Virus record (IMG/VR): IMGVR_UViG_2703718815_000003
DNA: 64,000 bases
Source of the DNA: a virus
Taxonomy: Duplodnaviria; Heunggongvirae; Uroviricota; Caudoviricetes
Strand: one strand, 5' to 3'
Below are positions 24,901 to 57,160 of this stretch, piece after piece. Every line of letters begins with the position of its first letter. The stretch's first letter is position 1. The translations under genes and the position numbers were made by a program. A model generated the notes under the pieces. The model was not told the DNA's origin, made no database searches, and worked only from the letters and a program-made list of their open reading frames with translations.

Positions 24901-25002
24901 GTATGCTGTCAGCGGTAATTGATAGTCTGTCAGCGGTTCACCGTATGCTGCCAACTGTTTTTGGTATTCTGTCAGCGGCAAATCAAGTATGCTGTCAGCG
25001 GT
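24901..25002 (+). repeat. iteron array upstream of repA (5 direct repeats of GTATGCTGTCAGCGGT)
   Basis: copies at 24901, 24925, 24943, 24966, 24987, spaced 18-24 bp. Confidence 0.8.
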
Positions 25003-25022
25003 TGAATGACAAAGGTGTCCAC

Positions 25023-26117
25023 ATGTCCACAAAAAATAAAAAAGGTAAAAATAACAAAGAAGTAGAAGATAATCTCGACAACTTTGAAGAAGGTTCCCTT
25101 GAATTGTACACAGGGGAACTTGTCCCTAATAGCAACAATACAGTCCAACCAATTGCGTTGATGCGGCTGGGATTGTTCGTGCCCACGCTCAAGGGGACAA
25201 AATACAGCAAGCGTAACAAGCCAAATGAGATCGATGCTTCAAAGGAGCTTGTTCAGCTCGAAGTAGCCCGTTCTGAAGGCTATTCCGATATCAAGATAAC
25301 CGGTCCTCGTCTCGACATGGATCATGATTTCAAAACGTGGGTGGGCGTTGTGCGTTCGCTGGCAGAATACGGCGAACCTAACGGTCGTGTCGAGTTAAGC
25401 ATCACGAAATTTGCGAAGTTTTGTGGCTATCCATCGTCACAGATCCGCAAAACACTCCGCGACCGGCTTACAAACAGTCTTTTGAAGATCATGCGTACAA
25501 CTCTGTCTTTCCAGAGAACGTATGAAGAAAAGAACGTCGACGGCTCTAACAAGATCTCGCTTCTGATGGTGCACCTCATCAATAGCGTGGACTACAACGA
25601 GCAGAAAGATACGGTGGTGTTCTATGCAGAACCGAAGCTGGCCGAACTATATCGCTTTGACCATAAGGTTCTTTTGCAGTTAAAGGTTATCAATAAGCTA
25701 CCACGCAAAGAAACAGCACAGGCTCTGTACACCTTCATCGAAAGTCTTCCAACCAAGCCTGCGCCGGTATCGCTTGCTCGATTGCGTGCGCGACTCAATT
25801 TGAGTAGCAGGAATGTCAGCTCGCAGAATCAGACTATACGCAACGGCTTAAAAGCTCTCCAAGATTTGGGTTATCTCGAATACAGCGAGATTAAGCGAGG
25901 GCGGTCGATCTATATCCAGATTCACAGCCGCAATCCAAAACTCAAAGTCGCACCGCCAAAACCTGAAGACATCGAACCCAAAAAACTAGATGAGAAAGCT
26001 GGGGAAATTGATGCCAAACAGAACATTATCAACAAGATAACCGAACTTTCGCAGAATTTGACGCCTGAAAATATCAAGATGATTGAGATCCTTTCCAATA
26101 GTCTCAAACTGCTTTGA
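25023..26117 (+). CDS. repA: iteron-binding replication initiator RepA-like protein
   Basis: only long plus-strand ORF here; bracketed by direct-repeat arrays; start placed at ATG 25023 after last upstream iteron (ORF track starts at 24903 inside the iterons). Confidence 0.65.
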   Translation: MSTKNKKGKNNKEVEDNLDNFEEGSLELYTGELVPNSNNTVQPIALMRLGLFVPTLKGTKYSKRNKPNEIDASKELVQLEVARSEGYSDIKITGPRLDMDHDFKTWVGVVRSLAEYGEPNGRVELSITKFAKFCGYPSSQIRKTLRDRLTNSLLKIMRTTLSFQRTYEEKNVDGSNKISLLMVHLINSVDYNEQKDTVVFYAEPKLAELYRFDHKVLLQLKVINKLPRKETAQALYTFIESLPTKPAPVSLARLRARLNLSSRNVSSQNQTIRNGLKALQDLGYLEYSEIKRGRSIYIQIHSRNPKLKVAPPKPEDIEPKKLDEKAGEIDAKQNIINKITELSQNLTPENIKMIEILSNSLKLL

Positions 26118-37700: not shown

Positions 37701-38270
37701 AATCTGGTCGTAGAATGGGGTAGGATGCGGATAAACCACACTATAGAAGTTGTCTTTTCCACCCGCTGTAATCAGTGTGCTTATAATTTTTGCAAAATCG
37801 TTGCGTTGGAACACGCTACCGATGTCGGAAGTAAGCAGGATGATGTTGCCTTTGGCATATGTAGAAACCAACTGTTCGAGCGAGAGACGCGGTACAAAGT
37901 AGAACTGTTCTCGTGTGTTGGCCGCCGTCATTAGTTCGCAGATGTCGCGATATCCTTGCTCATTTTTAATTAGAGCGGTAAACGAGTAGTTACGTCCCCG
38001 CTCTAATGATTCCATACATCTCATAGATTCTTTAGCAAGTTTAGCCCGGTGCTCGTATGTGGGATCATCAACAATGTTTAGTTTCACACCACAAATAACC
38101 GCCATGTCGTCACCAGCGGCACGTTGTAGTGGAATAACACTTGCAATATTCATGCTATCTGCTGAAATTACAGCGGTGTAGCCAGCTTCTCTGGCAATCT
38201 TCACCGCGTTTTCTGCTTTTAGAGCCGACTCCCCAAGTGAGAAGTCAGTTCGAACCATCAGTGCCTTCAT
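34752..38270 (-). CDS. dnaE: DNA polymerase III alpha-type (DnaE-like) replicative polymerase
   Basis: 1172 aa; N-terminal PHP-like domain; GPGRGSSAGSLVAWCIGITNVDPIRHGLLFERFINPER core motif. Confidence 0.85.
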   Translation of the reverse strand: MKALMVRTDFSLGESALKAENAVKIAREAGYTAVISADSMNIASVIPLQRAAGDDMAVICGVKLNIVDDPTYEHRAKLAKESMRCMESLERGRNYSFTALIKNEQGYRDICELMTAANTREQFYFVPRLSLEQLVSTYAKGNIILLTSDIGSVFQRNDFAKIISTLITAGGKDNFYSVVYPHPTPFYDQINVRAMKVASALKIEPVAFYPAYYESIDDADIKDIAHMVTNNIKIDQPHRLRIPHQRDNAVNGRRHLLEALKAFSVRMDVPVTAAMASTTQDTIIDACTWRWHELPPALPKMADDEPATLMKLAVAGLRKRLTTKEFGYTPPASENRVYVERLKYEMDTLTRLGFCGYFLMVRDLMNHSRETGIPVGPGRGSSAGSLVAWCIGITNVDPIRHGLLFERFINPERLDLPDADLDFSQARRHEVIEYLNERYGEDYVAGIPNFTYLGAASALRDTARIYGVESADMAVSKELKNVEDDSLPLEELREQLASLDKYATKYPDAFNAACKLQSLMRGFGRHAAGMIVAGVPLTERTPVERRGDARCIAFDKRYCEAMGLIKLDVLGLATLDLLDSAKRYIKENTGEDINLDAISLEDRKVLDGFAAGYTQGVFQLESGPMRKLLKDLGGGIEPMSFKTVVATTALFRPGPIQSGMLDDYVSVAKGFMTPESLHPVLDELTAETNGVILYQEQTMNATRLLAGFTMAEADGVRKAIGKKDMEKMKSMGEKFIVQAQAGWIDVELEDGTTQRIHRAEHFKCEDGTLKTVEEALEHGATLPINAVRVTASHPGLSEMKAKEIWTAFEKNGAYQFNKSHSVAYSLISYQSMWLKTHYPAEFFAAALTILGEDKHQGLVKDALTYGIRVLPPDVNVSSNRIEIRTLEDGSQVLYAPFSAVKGCSENGCQAIMRAREKVGGKFESLAQFEEAVEKRACNSRVRESLQKVGAFAAIEPGSLPATDPERLRDQAELMGNLVIDAVKASRPFEMNPKRSAEINALMTRMAAEMGLGDELIRPSIGIKPKIMIILDNANGNDARTGYFMENGYDDFKAKLLTAGDLRMGDLYVTGVCKKVKDKEKDYTKDEIGQFTDFMREEINLVRPTYVLTCGSRATALFNNKNKPSDLVGRKEYLPDLDVTVFYGFNPNILYFRPEEGERLEAILADVAETIKS

Positions 38271-41988: not shown

Positions 41989-42201
41989 TTAACAGATTCT
42001 GACGGCTAAAGACCCGGAGCCGGTATTGAGAAGCGTGAAGCGTTTGTTGTTAAGTTCGAATATAAATCCAGTTGTGTCATTCACACCAACCTGAATCTGC
42101 TCATTCGGTAGATCGGTGAGGATGTCAGCTACACACTCATCAGCTAATTTCTGTACGTGTCCGATCTCAAGAGCGATTAGGCTGGAAATAGTGGTGTTCA
42201 T
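41989..42201 (-). CDS. hypothetical protein
   Basis: 70-aa ORF. Confidence 0.3.
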   Translation of the reverse strand: MNTTISSLIALEIGHVQKLADECVADILTDLPNEQIQVGVNDTTGFIFELNNKRFTLLNTGSGSLAVRIC

Positions 42202-42377: not shown

Positions 42378-42405
42378 TTTACAACCCTAACCTTTGATGT
42401 AATAT
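42378..42405 (+). promoter_or_regulatory. candidate sigma70 promoter for the XRE regulator gene
   Basis: TTTACA - 16 nt - TAATAT, followed by palindrome GGTAAGCACTTACC before the start codon. Confidence 0.4.
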
Positions 42406-42451
42406 CGGTAAGCACTTACCAGAGAGAATTGAACGCGCAAAGGTTGTAACC

Positions 42452-42838
42452 ATGTCTGATAACAAGATTGAATTTATAGAAAGTCGCTACGCTGCTTTTA
42501 TCGCAGGGTTGATTGAATCCTCACCTATGAGCCAGGCCCAGATAGCCAAAACAATTGGGTATAAAAACGCCAACAACCTTTCTTTAATTAAAAGCGGCAA
42601 AATTCCTTTGCCTATCGATAAGGTTCGTCCGCTGGCGCTGGCACTGGGCATTGAGCCAAGTCGTCTTATGATGATGGTGCTGGAAGAACGCCAACCCGAA
42701 CTCGCAGCATTTTTATACAAAGAAGGCACTGCTCCTCTTAACGAGGACGAAAAACAGGTTCTTGCTGCATATAACGAGCGATTCGGTAAAGAGAAAGGCG
42801 CATCACAAAAGGTTGTTGAGGCCATAAAGTCTCTATGA
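42452..42838 (+). CDS. XRE-family helix-turn-helix transcriptional regulator
   Basis: HTH SQAQIAKTIGYKNANNLSLIKSGK; plus-strand gene convergent with recombinase. Confidence 0.65.
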   Translation: MSDNKIEFIESRYAAFIAGLIESSPMSQAQIAKTIGYKNANNLSLIKSGKIPLPIDKVRPLALALGIEPSRLMMMVLEERQPELAAFLYKEGTAPLNEDEKQVLAAYNERFGKEKGASQKVVEAIKSL

Positions 42839-43936
42839 AAAATTTACACGAATAAGCTCTGTTGATAGACGATCTCCCTTAAATTTGTGGTCAATTTCGT
42901 CTAAATCCGGTTGCTCTACGATTGATGCGATGTACGTCGAGAAACTTTCTAAGGCGTCTCGCATCTCGTCCATATAATCGTGACGGTCGTAGACCCGATC
43001 TATCCCCTCAAGACTGTGGTTCATGATTTTACGTGATACCTCCTGGCTTATGCCTAATGCTGGGAAGTAACTACGCGCAGTACGGCGCAAATCTCGGGGT
43101 GTAAATGGCTCAAGCTCCATCAGTTCTGGTCGTTCCAGAATACGACGTAATGCCTGGGCTATTGCCACTTTAGACATAGGAAGGTCTTTCCCGATTTTTT
43201 TATTCGAAGGCACGAGCCACTGGCTGTCTTTACCATATTCGAACAACTCTTCAATACAAGTGCGCATTAATGAGCTTAAAGGCAGAGAATGCTCACGGGC
43301 AGATTTGTTCCTCTTGCCTTGATTCCAAACCCCACGCTTAAGATTGAACTCACTTTTTTTAGCCCGCAGTACTTCGTCAGGTCGTCTTGCTGATACAAGA
43401 CACAGTCTGGCCGCCCATTTTGTACCAGCGCACACATTGAAGTAGTCCCATATATTCCAGAACACCCATACCTCTGCGTCAGTCAGCTTCCGCTCGCGGG
43501 GCGTGGGCTTTGCGCCACCGGCAACTTTGTTAAGTGACATATCGTTTAACGGTGACACGTCTATCATCCCCTGGAAGGCGCACCAGCTAAGGAACTGCTT
43601 CATCAGAGAGAAAACGCGGCGGCCCATAACAATTTTGCCATCCAGTATTAGTGGGTTGACCAGTTGGTTCACCATGAACCTATTAATATCACTTACTTTT
43701 ACATCGGCAATGTGCGGCAAAACATGTATCAAAATACAATGAACAGCGATCTCTGGCCGACGTCTGGTTATCAGCAGAGATAAGCGAGTGAATAACATGA
43801 ATGCGTCCGAGAATCTCATGTCATTGCTAACCTGGGAGATCATAACGGCCTGCATTTGAGATGCTCTTTCGAGATACTCAATCGCCTCTTTTGAGGTGTT
43901 CTCCGCAGCGCGTGCTCTGTCAAAGCTATTTTTCAT
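42833..43936 (-). CDS. tyrosine recombinase / integrase
   Basis: C-terminal catalytic region with ...RRPDEV..., TPRDLRRTARSY and HSLEGIDRVYDRHDY (R-K-H-R-H-Y-type arrangement). Confidence 0.75.
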   Translation of the reverse strand: MKNSFDRARAAENTSKEAIEYLERASQMQAVMISQVSNDMRFSDAFMLFTRLSLLITRRRPEIAVHCILIHVLPHIADVKVSDINRFMVNQLVNPLILDGKIVMGRRVFSLMKQFLSWCAFQGMIDVSPLNDMSLNKVAGGAKPTPRERKLTDAEVWVFWNIWDYFNVCAGTKWAARLCLVSARRPDEVLRAKKSEFNLKRGVWNQGKRNKSAREHSLPLSSLMRTCIEELFEYGKDSQWLVPSNKKIGKDLPMSKVAIAQALRRILERPELMELEPFTPRDLRRTARSYFPALGISQEVSRKIMNHSLEGIDRVYDRHDYMDEMRDALESFSTYIASIVEQPDLDEIDHKFKGDRLSTELIRVNFS

Positions 43937-44032
43937 ATGACAATCACCGAGTTACGCCGATGTACTGTATAAGTAAACAGTATATTAGGCATAGATTCTT
44001 ATAGGATCAAGAGTAAAAGTAACTCATTTTTA

Positions 44033-44071
44033 CTAATGATTCCATACATAGTAGGTATGGAATCATTTAGA
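44033..44071. promoter_or_regulatory. palindromic operator-like site upstream of recombinase gene
   Basis: AATGATTCCATAC-ATAGTAG-GTATGGAATCATT perfect 13-bp inverted repeat. Confidence 0.5.
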
Positions 44072-44148
44072 CGTCGTTTTTTAAATTTTAAGGTAAACAG
44101 GAGTGAGTTTGGTGGGGAATAAAAAACGGCTCCTGTGAGCCGTTAAAA

Positions 44149-44397
44149 TCAGAGGGTGCTGACGTATGCAGCCAGTTCTGTGTATCCGCCAATCGGCTGG
44201 CCATCGATCAGCACCTGGGGGATAGTCTCTACCGGTTTATCAACAATTTCACTTAGTTTTTCCTTGTCGATACCGGCAGTGGTGATGTCGATGTACTCAT
44301 AATCACCGTAGCCATGTCCCTTTAGTTGCTTCGCCAGCTCAACCGCACGTTTGCAGTATGAGCAGTTATCTCGTCCGTAGATAACGACTTTCATCAC
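44149..44397 (-). CDS. glutaredoxin
   Basis: 82 aa; CSYC active site, TIPQVLIDGQPIGGYTEL glutathione-site motif. Confidence 0.8.
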   Translation of the reverse strand: MMKVVIYGRDNCSYCKRAVELAKQLKGHGYGDYEYIDITTAGIDKEKLSEIVDKPVETIPQVLIDGQPIGGYTELAAYVSTL

Positions 44398-44668
44398 TTC
44401 ACCTCGTGCAACTGCTGTTCATTAACGATGATTGTGTCAATTTCGTAGCCGTGGATGCGTGGCTTTGGCTTCACTGCCTGACGAGCTGCGCGACGCGCCT
44501 GTTTACGTTTGTTTCCCATATAGAGTCCTTTCAAGTGAGTAAGTGTCGTGACTATAGCTAAAATGAATAGGTGAGTCATTACCTATTTAATGTGTTTGGT
44601 TACTAAGCAGAAATGGCTTTGTGAGGTTGACACATTAGAAACGGCAAGACAGCTTTAAACTAGCTGAA

Positions 44669-45790
44669 ATGGTATGGTCGATTAGGTATCATTCAGTTTC
44701 AAAATTAACCAAAGACACTGATAAAATGCCTGTTTTGTTAATCCTCATACTTGGGACAGTGATGATTATTTTCTGGGATACCGTCAAGGAAAACGTAGAG
44801 GTCATAGGTACACTTGCCACTTCACTTGCATTTTTCGCCACAGCATGGGCCGCTTACGAGGCAAGGCATAGTGCAAAGGCAGCAATGAGGGCCACTAGGC
44901 TGACGGCAGCTTCACTCCTTGAAATGAAAAAAGCCTCTTTTAAGGAATGGTACGGCATATTACTTGAACAGCATAATAGATTACTTGAGGATGTTAACAA
45001 GACCTTGCAGGATGATAGGGAACTTAATGCAAAACTGGGAACGAATCTCATCAAGGCTATTTATTACCATGTAACCAAAAACTCCGTTTACATTAAATAT
45101 ATTAACCACATAGTTTTAATTCTTGATTATTTAGATAAAGACTTCTATTCGCCGTCATCAGCCGATTATGAAAAGAGAGCTTACATAGAACAGCTGCGCA
45201 ACAGCATTAGTCCTAATGTAAGCCTGCTGATAGCTACATTCGGCCTTAATATTGACACTAATAAAACCTATGACGCAAAGAGGCTTTACAGCCTGCTAAG
45301 CAAGTATAACTTCTTCGAAGGCCAACTTTTTTTTGAAGAAGCAATATCGAAAGTTCATTATTTGGACTCTTATGCTGCTGTGATATTTGATAACGAATAC
45401 CGAAAAGATGTAGAGTTTTATGTTGAAGAAATGGTTCGAGGTCGTGAGACCCCTAAAATCGATTCAAGATATCGTCATTTAAGGGCTACGTTCGCAATTC
45501 TGTGGTCTTACAACAACCCCTGCCGACAACATTTGCTTCAAAGATTTAATGACCTACCTATGCATATGCGAAACAGCATTGAGCTGAGGATGGAAAATGC
45601 AGCCGATAAAGTAGCTGAGTTCAACTCTTTGTTACTTGGTTTTATAGGCTGGGAGCTTAGAATCGCAGGTAATAAAGTGAGGGTGATCAAGGATGAAAAA
45701 CATTTAAAGAGGCTAATAAAACTCAACGATAAGTATCCTATTCCCCCCCCGAGAGAAAGGTATTCTGTTAACCAATGGTTTCACCAATAG
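44669..45790 (+). CDS. membrane-anchored hypothetical protein (plus-strand moron; 3' end may be frameshifted at a C8 tract)
   Basis: 373-aa ORF, N-terminal hydrophobic helices; C8 run at 45743..45750; +1 frame stays open to 45957. Confidence 0.45.
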   Translation: MVWSIRYHSVSKLTKDTDKMPVLLILILGTVMIIFWDTVKENVEVIGTLATSLAFFATAWAAYEARHSAKAAMRATRLTAASLLEMKKASFKEWYGILLEQHNRLLEDVNKTLQDDRELNAKLGTNLIKAIYYHVTKNSVYIKYINHIVLILDYLDKDFYSPSSADYEKRAYIEQLRNSISPNVSLLIATFGLNIDTNKTYDAKRLYSLLSKYNFFEGQLFFEEAISKVHYLDSYAAVIFDNEYRKDVEFYVEEMVRGRETPKIDSRYRHLRATFAILWSYNNPCRQHLLQRFNDLPMHMRNSIELRMENAADKVAEFNSLLLGFIGWELRIAGNKVRVIKDEKHLKRLIKLNDKYPIPPPRERYSVNQWFHQ

Positions 45791-45961
45791 ATTCGCTGAT
45801 GAGATTAAAAATAGTCTGTCTATGTATAAGTTAGAAAATGCCTATTTAGCACTCAACTCTAATCAACACAAAGAAAAGGTGATTGATGAAATTGTTGTTG
45901 AAGTTGAGAAAATTGTCGATAAATTTAAAGCAGAACTTGATTCTTTGGATTTCAACTAAGC

Positions 45962-45990
45962 AAAAAGGGGCCGAAGCCCCTTTAATTATT
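45962..45990. terminator. bidirectional intrinsic terminator
   Basis: aggggc-cgaa-gcccct hairpin with TTAATTATTT on plus strand and TTTTT on minus strand. Confidence 0.65.
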
Positions 45991-46069
45991 TGCGCTGAAA
46001 AAAGTGTTGCTAGGATGTTAGCAAGCTATGGTTAAGAACGTCTGCCGCAATTGTCTATCACAGCGTTGA

Positions 46070-46135
46070 GCGGTCTGGTTTATGTTAGCGGAGTCTTAAT
46101 CTGGGTGATTAAAAGGCCAAACCGCTCAACGCTGT
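46070..46135. repeat. perfect 16-bp inverted repeat (long stem-loop) downstream of tRNA cluster
   Basis: cacagcgttgagcggt ... accgctcaacgctgtg with a ~34-nt loop. Confidence 0.6.
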
Positions 46136-46138
46136 GTC

Positions 46139-46225
46139 TGGCGGAGAGTAATGGAATCGAACCATCATCGCTTGCGCAATGGGACGGTTTTCAAGACCGC
46201 TTGAGCACCATGCTCCCTACTCTCC
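46139..46225 (-). tRNA. tRNA-Ser (anticodon UGA), CCA encoded
   Basis: manual fold: acceptor GGAGAGT/ACTCTCC, anticodon loop CTTGAAA, long variable arm, T-loop TTCGATT. Confidence 0.75.
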
Positions 46226-46438
46226 AGTTGTTGTGGTGCCGGGGGCTTCCCGGTGTCCTTTGGCTGGTTATCCACCGTGGACGGAGCCAATAGTCATCAC
46301 AAAGGATCAATATAACCATTTCCCCGCGTGCGCTTAGCCGCATTCACCACAACGAAAAGAGCACTGTATGACGTTTGCACGGACTTACGCTTAAAACAGG
46401 GCAGTCTCGGCGGTTCTCAATGCTCTTTCCTGTTGTGT

Positions 46439-46514
46439 TGGTGCCGGTTAACGGATTCGAACCGCCGACCATTCGCTTACAAGGCGACTGCTCTACCAAC
46501 TGAGCTAAACCGGC
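46439..46514 (-). tRNA. tRNA-Thr (anticodon UGU), CCA encoded
   Basis: manual fold: acceptor GCCGGTT/AACCGGC, D-arm GCTCAGTTGGTAGAGC, anticodon loop CTTGTAA, T-loop TTCGAAT. Confidence 0.75.
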
Positions 46515-46518
46515 AATT

Positions 46519-46605
46519 TGGTGGGGAGTGATGGAGTCGAACCACCCGAGTCGCAATGACAGTAGATTTACAGTCTACACCGCTACCTCTACGGACTAAC
46601 TCCCC
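46519..46605 (-). tRNA. tRNA-Tyr (anticodon GUA), CCA encoded
   Basis: manual fold: acceptor GGGGAGT/ACTCCCC, anticodon stem GTAGA/TCTAC with loop CTGTAAA, long variable arm. Confidence 0.75.
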
Positions 46606-46610
46606 TAAAT

Positions 46611-46685
46611 TGGCGATGGTGGGTGGATTCGAACCACCGACCAGTTGGTTAACAGCCAACTGCTCTACCGCTGAGCTACACCATC
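46611..46685 (-). tRNA. tRNA-Asn (anticodon GUU), CCA encoded
   Basis: manual fold: acceptor GATGGTG/CACCATC, anticodon stem GTTGG/CCAAC with loop CTGTTAA, T-loop TTCGAAT. Confidence 0.75.
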
Positions 46686-47463
46686 AATTCGGCACTGCCA
46701 GTATTTATTACTCAACAGTGCCAATCGCGACGGTTTAGTTTCTGCCAGGAAACGCACCGCTACTTGCACTTTTCGTTAGTGCCAGACGCTTTCGACTTCG
46801 CTCAATAGTAGAAGGCAAAATCTTTAAGTAGATGATGTTTCTGAGGACAGCACCTACTTTGTAATTTATACAATGTGATGTATGGAATCATTTGTTGTGA
46901 AAACAGGCACCAATGGCAACAGTGGTTAAACCTACACAACAATCCTGTCTTCACAACGTTGAGGCCACTACTCCGATTGAATGTTTGCCCAACATGTTAC
47001 ATATCAACGCTCGCCGGTATCTCTGTGAATAGAACCTTAGAATTGATAAAAATGTAATGGCCTCAACGTTGTGTGCTGGCTAACCATACCAGCCGGGCTA
47101 CGTCGCCGCTTTTTAACCCAGTATAAACGACATAATTGAACAAAATGACGTAACAGGATGGGCGGTCAGAGGCTAAGAATCCGGGAGTCATATGGAGTTG
47201 AAAATATACCGACCGCCCATTCTGTTACTTCATCGGAGGGAACACTCATGTTCCCTCCTGCGTTCTGCAATCACACTCGCTCAGTGTGTCCCATTTCGGT
47301 AACGAGGCTGGAAACTGACCTCGCTGGTGTTTGGCTTATTAGGCTACTGCCAGATAGACTTCTTCGTTTGCACTTGTATTTAAGTTCAAACAGTCGCGTC
47401 TCAACGAAAACAAAGTCATCTTATACATAAAAGATAAGTAAGTAAATACTTATTATTGTGTTT

Positions 47464-47754: not shown

Positions 47755-47899
47755 TTTCTAACCTTTGTTTCATGAACTACCCGATACACACGCTTTCCGA
47801 TGCACAGTGTTTTGGTTTTAAGTTCCTGCTTAATTAAATCACGACAGATGCCGAAGCCGATAAGGAAGCCACCCATAAAAGCTAATGAGATGTATGGAA

Positions 47900-48115
47900 T
47901 CATTTTAACGCTCCTGATTCTACTAATTGCTGTAGCAATAATTTCCCTTTATCAGTTAACTGGTAGTTGGCCGAGCACCACGTTTCAGAAACGTTTGCAA
48001 CCAACCCTAAACGCTCTAACTTAGCTCGCGTTTTAGGCTTCCAGTACTCAGGGAACTCCGGCCACTTACTGATTTCATGAAGCGTTTCTTTCTCCCTTTT
48101 ACTTAATACGATCAT
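47900..48115 (-). CDS. hypothetical protein
   Basis: 71-aa ORF overlapping ligase gene end by 4 nt. Confidence 0.3.
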   Translation of the reverse strand: MIVLSKREKETLHEISKWPEFPEYWKPKTRAKLERLGLVANVSETWCSANYQLTDKGKLLLQQLVESGALK

Positions 48116-56132: not shown

Positions 56133-56492
56133 TCAACCTTTCTTCATCAACTCTCGTTTAATTTCATCGGTACGCATCGTAACGTCGGCAGCTGTGATCG
56201 CCTCGTTAAGCTTCACGATGTCCTCGATTTCCTGCGGTGACTTCTCTGCCAGATGGAAAATGGCTGCTCGAATCACGTCAGAACGAGTGAACTTCTCGAA
56301 GCGAGGGATGAACTTCATCATCTCCAGCAGTTCGAAGTATTCGTCCTCCAGTGACATTGTGCGGCTTTTAATTTTCTCTTTGCCACGAGTCGGGCGTCCC
56401 TGTGGTCTGACTGGTTGGCGCAAAGGAGTTGTGTTCTTAGCCGGTGCATCAGGCTCTTTGCGCTTTGCTAGGTCACCCATTTTCATGGACAT
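56133..56492 (-). CDS. ParG/ParB-like small partition protein (RHH-type, tentative)
   Basis: 119 aa; basic disordered N-terminus, C-terminal strand-helix-helix-like segment; start overlaps parA stop. Confidence 0.45.
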   Translation of the reverse strand: MSMKMGDLAKRKEPDAPAKNTTPLRQPVRPQGRPTRGKEKIKSRTMSLEDEYFELLEMMKFIPRFEKFTRSDVIRAAIFHLAEKSPQEIEDIVKLNEAITAADVTMRTDEIKRELMKKG

Positions 56493-57160
56493 TATTCTTC
56501 TTCCTCCAGACTCAACAGATAATCTACAAATTCTTCAAACTCGGCTTCCGCCTTTTTGTCGCGCTCGCTACCGGTCATTTCAAAGATAGAACGACCAGAC
56601 TCTTCCGCATCATCATAGACGTTGCGGTTATATAGATTGACTGGCGCAGACTCGATTCCAAACGTCTCAACAATCTCTTTAGCCGCCAGAATGCGAGACA
56701 CTTGTGATGGCAAAGCCGGGCACTGGTTCATGACCGCGCGGACCTTCACTTTATCGTTTACATTGCGAACATTGTCGATAATAGGATCGATGTCACGTAA
56801 AGATTTCAAATCACGACGCTTAGGACGCAGCGGGATAATGATAACGTCAGCCATCAGCATCGCTTGTCGCTGAATTTCGGAGTCGAAGCCACCAGCATCT
56901 ACCACTACAAACTCAGCTCTACCCTGAAGCGATTTTAGGTGCTTAATGATGTCATCCTGAACGTATGCAAAAGGAATCAGCTCAAGGTCTTCGTTCTGTC
57001 GACGGTCTTCACACCAGCTCGTTGTCGTGCGCTGAATATCTATATCGGTAATATAAACCTTCTTCTTCTTTTTGACTTTCAGGCAAACGGCAATTTGCTG
57101 GGCAACGGTGGATTTGCCAGGCCCGCCCTTTGTGCCGCCAACCACAAAGATCTTGGTCAT
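56492..57160 (-). CDS. parA: ParA-family partition ATPase (small type Ib)
   Basis: deviant Walker A VVGGTKGGPGKST, Walker B FVVVDAGG. Confidence 0.8.
   Translation of the reverse strand: MTKIFVVGGTKGGPGKSTVAQQIAVCLKVKKKKKVYITDIDIQRTTTSWCEDRRQNEDLELIPFAYVQDDIIKHLKSLQGRAEFVVVDAGGFDSEIQRQAMLMADVIIIPLRPKRRDLKSLRDIDPIIDNVRNVNDKVKVRAVMNQCPALPSQVSRILAAKEIVETFGIESAPVNLYNRNVYDDAEESGRSIFEMTGSERDKKAEAEFEEFVDYLLSLEEEE

Follow-up and report, generated by a model that had tools for sequence, protein, structure and literature searches.

Among site-specific recombination systems, Cre/loxP of phage P1, like Dre/rox, VCre and Vika, consists of a lone tyrosine recombinase encoded beside its own site, in which two 13-bp inverted arms enclose an asymmetric spacer. 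Cre/loxP belongs to a low-copy plasmid prophage, uses neither arm-type sites nor an excisionase, and has dimer resolution as its expected role. XerCD also resolves multimers at inverted-arm core sites (dif, cer and psi), which have an 11-6/8-11 layout. The P4-type (CP4-57/IntS-like) integrases recombine an attP with arm sites and a tRNA-derived core, and integron integrases are LexA-controlled, with the attI site immediately upstream of the gene and variable genes beyond it. The locus described here lies in a 64,000-nt stretch of viral DNA (IMG/VR record IMGVR_UViG_2703718815_000003; the whole stretch is called the window below) and comprises a tyrosine recombinase gene, int, and a 33-bp palindrome upstream of it. 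It shares every listed feature of Cre/loxP, and comparative sequence analysis indicates that gene and palindrome probably form a Cre/loxP-like module, whose main job would be to keep a low-copy phage-plasmid of about 108 kb monomeric. The module is composed of the following parts:

42833..43936, minus strand: int, tyrosine recombinase of 367 amino acids (aa), annotated 'integrase', identified as an open reading frame (ORF) with Pfam PF00589
44035..44067, no strand: proposed recombination core site of 33 bp, a 13-7-13 inverted repeat about 100 bp upstream of int
44035-44047: left arm, AATGATTCCATAC
44048-44054: spacer ATAGTAG, asymmetric, 7 bp
44055-44067: right arm, GTATGGAATCATT

By sequence, the window is an SSU5-like phage-plasmid: the region matches Escherichia phage Cyrano (pLF82) at 98% identity and phage PhiR41_1 at 93.5%, each of them an SSU5-like phage-plasmid of about 108 kb. 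The Cyrano plasmid is present at about 5.5 copies per cell, a regime in which dimers matter. The Cyrano annotation contains no other site-specific recombinase, and no dif/cer-like Xer site is present in Cyrano or in the window; a host Xer site was likewise considered and none was found.

A preliminary description of this stretch had singled out a palindrome at 44033..44071; the palindrome is present, with its exact bounds at 44035-44067. An exact-arm scan of IMG/VR returned 101 loci, and int adjoins the site in every locus long enough to tell. The gap between the site and the int ATG is about 100 nt, and about 45 nt in a lineage with 57-61% Int identity. A second set of loci (n=80) was selected by protein similarity alone, to avoid ascertainment by the arms; the palindrome is found in 79 of the 80, 71 times with exact arms and 8 times with one mismatch, at the outermost position. 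Over 24 lineage representatives the arms carry 2 bits per position, the spacer and flanks vary, and the arms remain invariant down to an Int identity of 57%. The spacers are of at least 11 types (ATAGTAG, TTAATAG, CTACCAA, CTTACAA, CTACTAT, TTACATA, TATATAA, CTAAAGA, CTATTAA, CTAAGGA and TTTATAG). More distant Int homologs (44-47% identity), encoded by a Xenorhabdus phage-plasmid, a 508-kb plasmid of Pantoea vagans and a 723-kb Rahnella replicon, are accompanied by a 13-7-13 palindrome in the corresponding position with other arms, (T)GTGACTCCAGAC-N7-GTCTGGAGTCA(C/T)A, also written as GTGACTCCAGAC-N7-GTCTGGAGTCAC-type. This co-variation of arms and Int is the decisive evidence that the palindrome is the recombinase's own site, and together with linkage and conservation it strengthens the earlier choice of the palindrome as the predicted cognate site. 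The Pantoea and Rahnella int genes are solitary, with no XRE or helix-turn-helix (HTH) partner and no phage genes nearby, indicating that gene plus site make up a self-sufficient two-part module.

The site is thus built like a simple site of the Cre type, with inverted arms of 13 bp on either side of an asymmetric spacer and the recombinase gene adjacent, but its spacer is 7 bp long (8 bp for Cre) and it is accompanied by a conserved flank element. Other differences from Cre/loxP are the absence of a detectable sequence relationship, the probable P4-type descent of the recombinase, an arginine in place of the second catalytic histidine (His-II), a LexA box and three isolated copies of the arm, all described below. 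Unlike XerCD, the system relies on a single element-encoded recombinase, with a 13-7-13 site and no evidence of accessory proteins.

Two plasmids (L002, PV340561, and L049) share 99.8-100% identity for 1 kb to either side of the site and carry exactly reverse-complemented spacers, CTACTAT and ATAGTAG, and the TTAATAG and CTATTAA spacers of other lineages show the same relation. Such flips possibly arise from rare wrong-alignment recombination between symmetric-arm sites, or from template switching in the palindrome. Two other roles for the palindrome were considered and rejected. As an intrinsic terminator, it has its T-run 9 nt from the stem and is not called by the terminator scan. As for the 13-mer being a dispersed master-repressor operator of the P1 C1 kind, the 108 kb of Cyrano contain only the palindrome and three single copies, and the arms co-vary with Int on megaplasmids that have no XRE gene.

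Int matches PF00589 (Phage_integrase) with an E value of 2.9e-10 and 40.6 bits (cutoff 27.1), and also gives a weak central-domain match in Pfam. Its catalytic residues, R185, K211, R281-x-x-R284, H307 and Y316, are all invariant across an alignment of 34 sequences reaching down to 42% identity, as is R184; the usual His-II of the H-x-x-R box is replaced throughout the family by the invariant R281 (P-R-D-L-R-R-T; window about 43094-43096). Int is a member of the tyrosine recombinase superfamily. Its AlphaFold2 (AF2) model has a predicted local distance difference test (pLDDT) score of 85, with residues 1-57 all-helical, and the closest PDB folds in a Foldseek search are lambda Int, Tn1549 Int, XerA/XerH, IntI and Cre, at 12-16% identity over their core-binding and catalytic parts; these matches establish class membership and not function. 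For Cre the Foldseek E value is 1.5e-2 at 12% identity, and a phmmer search against all PDB chains returned nothing at E<=1, so that Int is not a detectable Cre homolog.

The Int family comprises about 113 proteins of 340-380 aa at 44% identity or above, and the arm-binding domain PF13356 is found in none of these, the query included. Beyond the family, identity drops abruptly to 26-34%, and the relatives are P4-type integrases of 400-464 aa, all with PF13356. The NCBIfam P4-integrase model PRK09692 matches Int at E 1.3e-8, over model positions 137-393 only. These closest outside relatives share the PF22022 core-binding domain, PF00589 and the D-L-R-R-T box with the family, which differs from them in lacking PF13356, in its helical residues 1-57, in never being chromosomal and in having a perfect palindrome rather than an attP with arm sites. 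The family is best read, from these sequence comparisons, as derived from P4-type integrases through loss of the arm-binding domain.

The preliminary description had left the recombinase as either a genuine integrase or a Cre/Xer-like resolvase serving plasmid stability, and had proposed a search for integrated copies bounded by attL and attR. In 5,426 complete Escherichia coli genomes, the locus occurs at 254 places in 252 genomes, all on plasmids and none chromosomal. The exact site is found in 7 of 185,579 species-representative genomes, always beside int and on contigs of at most 169 kb, one of which is Yersinia pestis pMT1; no int-less copy of the site turned up in these genomes by exact-arm search, which a degenerate attB would escape. 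PLSDB holds 934 plasmids with an Int homolog, 900 of them non-mobilizable, with 74 Pantoea megaplasmids among them. Neither a Xis-like gene nor arm-type repeats were found. A Cre/loxP-like role in multimer resolution is favoured by the combination of a symmetric site, a plasmid-only location and the lack of both an arm-binding domain and an excisionase, whereas a genuine integrase did not gain support. If the palindrome were instead an attP, with the phage-plasmid alternating between the plasmid state and a chromosomal attB, the P4-type prophage integrases as nearest sequence relatives and the 'integrase' annotation in every record would be readily accommodated, and SOS-induced expression (see below) would be fitting for an enzyme of excision. 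A close Int homolog (P0006) is also present on three contigs of 0.2-1 Mb, which might represent rare integrated or cointegrated forms. A genuine integrase is, however, very improbable given the 254 plasmid locations and the constant company of int and site, the absence of an arm-binding domain, arm-type repeats and excisionase gene, the perfect symmetry of the arms and the solitary int-plus-site modules on megaplasmids. Furthermore, a survey attributes the rare chromosomal remnants of phage-plasmids to recombination that is not directed by integrases (PMC12977533). The formation of cointegrates at the site was also considered and rejected, large plasmids (161-252 kb) retaining the site with both flanks intact.

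In a Cre/loxP-like module, each 13-bp arm would bind one Int monomer and the two sites on a head-to-tail dimer would synapse. Tyr316 would cleave where the 7-bp spacer meets the arms, and strand exchange by way of a Holliday junction would give two monomers, which the ParA system would segregate. The asymmetric spacer would set the polarity of the site, and lineage-specific spacers would block fusion between unlike elements residing in the same cell. A further possible role of the module is to circularise replicated phage DNA or tidy it up, a task that Cre performs for P1. The complete replicon and partition system ascribed earlier to this element is borne out for two components:

24903-26117, plus strand: Rep3-type initiator
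56492-57160, minus strand: ParA-type ATPase

The third expected component, a centromere-binding partner, was not found by Pfam. In the whole Cyrano genome several 12-mers are present 5-6 times (AAACAAGTTGTT, and CATGTGTTTTTC/AAAAACACATGA) and may be iterons or centromere repeats.

The interval between the site and int contains the signals expected to govern int expression:

43982..44010, minus strand: inferred int promoter read from the sequence, -35 TTGATC (44010..44005), 17-nt spacer, -10 TAATAT (43987..43982)
43963..43982, no strand: LexA (SOS) box TACTGTATAAGTAAACAGTA, abutting the int -10

The promoter lies below the stringency of the consensus promoter scan. The TACTGTATAAGTAAACAGTA box is the only CTGT-N8-ACAG in the 64-kb window, and one of two strong LexA boxes in the Cyrano genome. 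In all lineages with Int of at least 79% identity, CTGT, ACAG and both promoter hexamers are kept and the inner 8 nt vary; fixed half-sites with a drifting centre are the pattern expected of a LexA operator. The second Cyrano box, TACTGTATGTGTATACAGTA (OV696614 89275-89294; 39275-39294 of locus L109), falls outside the window, 17 nt upstream of the gene for a UmuD-like S24 peptidase, CYRAN_98. In published LF82 transcriptomes, int is expressed at about 5 times the prophage background in lysogens grown in LB; inside macrophages int rises about 26-fold and CYRAN_98 about 32-fold, with dnaE and cobS flat while int rises. Expression of int tracks that of CYRAN_98, the other LexA-box gene, over five conditions, and several other Cyrano genes rise too; the pattern fits LexA control of int but is not proof of it. 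From the predicted box at its promoter, int appears to be LexA-regulated. In the SSU5/pHCM2/pMT1/Klebsiella group, host LexA would hold int down and SOS would raise it, at a time that would be one of RecA-driven dimer formation and of prophage induction alike.

On the far side of the palindrome lies a region whose content differs between relatives:

44068..46138, no strand: hypervariable cargo region beyond the site
44149-44579, minus strand: glutaredoxin operon, in the cargo region
44669-45790, plus strand: ORF of 373 aa, with no Pfam match and a match to PHROG 18168 only, absent from Cyrano and probably cargo

Right flanks fall into 36 different clusters among 103 loci, and relatives of the window (L001-L006) carry other cargo, including a YafO-type toxin, a colicin E1 immunity gene and a GadW-like regulator, among others. 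Such an arrangement recalls IntI/attI, with a LexA-controlled gene, a site immediately upstream and variable genes beyond, and an SOS-induced Int might insert or exchange cargo at the site and so generate the hypervariable region. The predicted LexA control of int, the position of the site between int and the cargo, the 36 junction families and the end of homology with many relatives within a few bases of the right arm would all be in keeping with integron-like capture, as would the very high expression that site-adjacent cargo can reach (CYRAN_43, the gene next to the site in Cyrano, stands at 723 times the prophage background). On the other hand, no cassette-like second site was found in the cargo region, no attC-like partner bounds the cargo, and the other copies of the arm are single, with unrelated spacers that do not match. 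The site is double-stranded and symmetric, and IntI is only a generic fold match to Int. At least one cargo replacement ends inside the glutaredoxin gene, a far boundary as expected of homologous recombination; the large cointegrate plasmids retain both flanks of the site; and a conserved element reaching to +24 places the true break beyond the site. Capture of cargo by Int is quite improbable on this evidence, and ordinary homologous exchange between conserved anchors is enough to explain the cargo variation.

Further sequences related to the site, or linked to it, are found on either side:

38005..38017, plus strand: isolated arm copy a, AATGATTCCATAC followed by ATC, antisense inside the dnaE-like gene
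46880..46892, minus strand: isolated arm copy b, about 195 nt upstream of the tRNA cluster
47892..47904, minus strand: isolated arm copy c, overlapping the ATG of a conserved 50-aa ORF (MIPYIS...)
44077..44091, plus strand: cargo-side flank element, consensus TTTTTTGAAATCTGA, here TTTTTTAAATTTTAA, 9 nt past the right arm

Copies a, b and c each consist of the exact 13-mer followed by ATC, and all are oriented towards the palindrome; in Cyrano, the three single copies lie within -6 to +3.2 kb. They are kept to the base, with diverged flanks, in lineages down to 59% Int identity, and are absent in the Xenorhabdus element. Conservation of copy a through protein constraint was rejected, because the CMESL that it encodes falls in a variable loop of DnaE, one that Xenorhabdus does not conserve. 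Recombination of an isolated arm with the palindrome was rejected as well, the spacers ATC[T/A]CAT and ATAGTAG/CTACTAT sharing 2-3 of 7 positions, and the analogy of polar arms with a fork trap or terminus fails in that the site lies about 20 kb from repA and not opposite it.

In the window, copies a and c form a pair of identical, inverted 20-mers, which would suit a switch of the Rci/sfx shufflon type, in which Int flips the segment of about 9.9 kb between 38005 and 47904. Rci sites of the R64 shufflon have one conserved arm only, as would be the case here. The predicted junction of a with c is, however, found in none of 219 matching E. coli plasmids (no place covers 80% or more of it); about 50 IMG/VR loci extend to copy a, and these lack the junction too and have a constant orientation. 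In other lineages the spacers of a and c do not change together, and inversion would decapitate dnaE. Shufflon-type inversion is thus largely refuted at the assembly level, and a residual role of this kind is hardly credible.

Of 33 right-flank families with no other relationship, 24 match the flank element at 10 or more of its 15 positions, 21 of these at an offset of 8-9, a score attained by only 3.4% of random 45-mers from the window. The element is T-tract/GAAATCTGA-like, with weaker versions in the Xenorhabdus and Pantoea relatives. It may be a site for an accessory factor; an IHF site or a sigma-70 promoter, read by eye, gave no convincing match.

Several observations weigh against a Cre/loxP-like resolvase. 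A simple Cre/lox model assigns no role to the three isolated arms or to the flank element, and the three contigs of 0.2-1 Mb leave room for rare integrated or cointegrated forms. SOS control would not be expected of a housekeeping resolvase, Cre is not known to be under LexA control, and the LexA box is itself absent from the 57-61% Int lineage and from distant relatives. Finally, no biochemical or genetic study of Int was found in the literature that could be searched, in which the recombinase family is so far uncharacterised.

The neighbouring regulator gene is arranged as follows, with its candidate control sequences:

42452..42838, plus strand: XRE-type HTH gene of 128 aa, candidate prophage repressor, its 3' end overlapping int by 6 nt
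42378-42405, plus strand: XRE promoter, TTTACA-16-TAATAT
42407-42420: candidate operator, the perfect palindrome GGTAAGCACTTACC, at +1 of the XRE promoter
41989..42201, minus strand: ORF of 70 aa (PHROG 2627), divergent from the XRE gene and downstream of int on the int strand

The convergence of the recombinase (42833-43936, minus strand) and XRE genes (42452-42838, plus strand) had been correctly described. The two genes overlap at 42833-42838, and the pair persists even where Int identity is down to 61%, and also in the lineage of Xenorhabdus (about 45%). The XRE protein scores 19.7 bits with Pfam HTH_19, below the 30.2 cutoff, and matches PHROG 8 ('transcriptional regulator') at 1.3e-11. 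Residues 12-80 of its AF2 model are helical, with pLDDT 84-90, and its Foldseek matches are weak (E about 1e-2) and suggest a generic XRE fold: C-proteins, HigA, SinR and 434 Cro. The 128-aa protein, all-helical in the model, has no Pfam match to an S24 peptidase domain. Its homologs are confined to SSU5-like elements of about 100-116 kb.

The promoter-like signal noted earlier for this gene is, as a pattern, no better than chance (4 promoter patterns in the region where 5.1 are expected), so that its weight comes from conservation: promoter and GGTAAGCACTTACC together make up a block that is kept in all lineages with Int of at least 79% identity, and no other part of the 250-bp intergenic region is as well conserved. 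With up to 2 mismatches allowed, the window contains 8 occurrences of the operator motif where 1.4 are expected, a count reached by 0 of 100 shuffles. Six of the seven other copies lie just upstream of minus-strand gene starts, those of nrdA, methyltransferase, glutaredoxin and holin genes and of two further minus-strand ORFs, and five of the six have the extended form ATAGGTAAGnnCTTACCTAT. The palindromes that share the operator core are positioned as follows:

2498, 7467, 9683, 19234, 44570 and 59794, plus 42407: operator-like palindromes sharing the core of the XRE operator, 14 nt each

The Cyrano ortholog, CYRAN_45, is listed as a putative repressor and is expressed at about 10 times background in lysogens. 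Cyrano has no CI-type (HTH plus S24) repressor, and two other candidates were set aside, CYRAN_114 being FljA-like and CYRAN_98 an S24 peptidase only. The XRE gene is divergent from the 70-aa ORF at the head of the cobT-cobS-dnaE row, a layout like that of a CI/Cro switch. The earlier proposal of a lysogeny repressor is therefore strengthened by the conserved promoter and operator, the recurring motif, the expression in lysogens and the lack of a CI-type repressor in Cyrano, though it is not proven. The XRE protein is a probable prophage repressor, with a function separate from recombination. It is the presumed binder of the motif, and would autoregulate at GGTAAGCACTTACC and act on similar 20-bp palindromes at several promoters. 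In this it resembles P1 C1 and non-cleavable repressors such as 186 CI, which are small, have no protease domain and act through an operator motif at several promoters. The XRE family is, however, unrelated to P1 C1, and its candidate operators are 20-bp palindromes (ATAGGTAAGnnCTTACCTAT) rather than asymmetric 17-mers. Since the protein has no protease domain, SOS induction would need an indirect route.

Transcription of int itself could provide such a route. Ciprofloxacin induces Cyrano 39-fold, yet its genome has two LexA boxes only and no HTH-plus-S24 repressor; as int runs head-on into the repressor gene, induction could pass through SOS-driven convergent transcription or an antirepressor. 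The int transcription unit might then have its main role as an SOS sensor of the lysis-lysogeny switch, acting by transcriptional interference, an antirepressor or both. The convergent overlap is present in every phage-plasmid lineage and absent from the solitary megaplasmid copies, there is no convincing terminator between int and the 70-aa ORF, and expression of that ORF tracks int over the five conditions. The 70-aa ORF, whose Cyrano ortholog is raised about 88-fold in macrophages, is a candidate for a Cro-like protein or an antirepressor. Against a primarily regulatory int, a catalytically intact enzyme and its site would be left without explanation, so that regulation would be an added layer at best; the RNA-seq may not be strand-specific; cobT, cobS and dnaE remain near background when int rises; and the 57-61% lineage has the overlap but no LexA box. 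As the main role of int, regulation is improbable. A combined arrangement is doubtful too, if somewhat less so: int would double as SOS sensor, through transcription that LexA release sets off and that runs antisense to the repressor gene and into the 70-aa ORF, and Int bound at the three isolated arm copies would organise the region of about 10 kb around its site. This sensor route would be a layer added to recombination and not a replacement for it, leaving the Cre/loxP-like module in place.

The surroundings of the module are syntenic. In all relatives examined the gene order is the same: ligase, small ORFs, tRNAs, glutaredoxin/cargo, site, int, XRE (opposite strand), the 70-aa ORF, cobT-like, cobS-like and dnaE-like genes, with the 70-aa ORF as first gene of the conserved cobT-cobS-dnaE row. 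The tRNA genes are located next to the cargo region:

46139-46685, minus strand: cluster of four tRNA genes, Ser-tga, Thr-tgt, Tyr-gta and Asn-gtt

The Cyrano cluster has three genes only, without Tyr. The Ser tRNA of the window is called by ARAGORN and lies below the Rfam gathering score; the Rfam search returned nothing besides tRNAs.

SSU5-like phage-plasmids are common in clinical Enterobacteriaceae, Yersinia pestis pMT1 included, and carry resistance and virulence cargo. The label 'integrase' is routinely taken to mean that an element integrates; a lox-like system for maintenance, acting on a 33-bp target, would correct this annotation, and would explain why SSU5-like elements are never chromosomal. 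The module would be a stability determinant that could be targeted for curing. The two naturally orthogonal recombinase/site pairs (AATGATTCCATAC arms and GTGACTCCAGAC arms), with their many spacer variants, are possible tools for genome engineering. The predicted LexA box and the overlap of int with the probable repressor gene make the SOS inducibility of SSU5-like phages directly testable.

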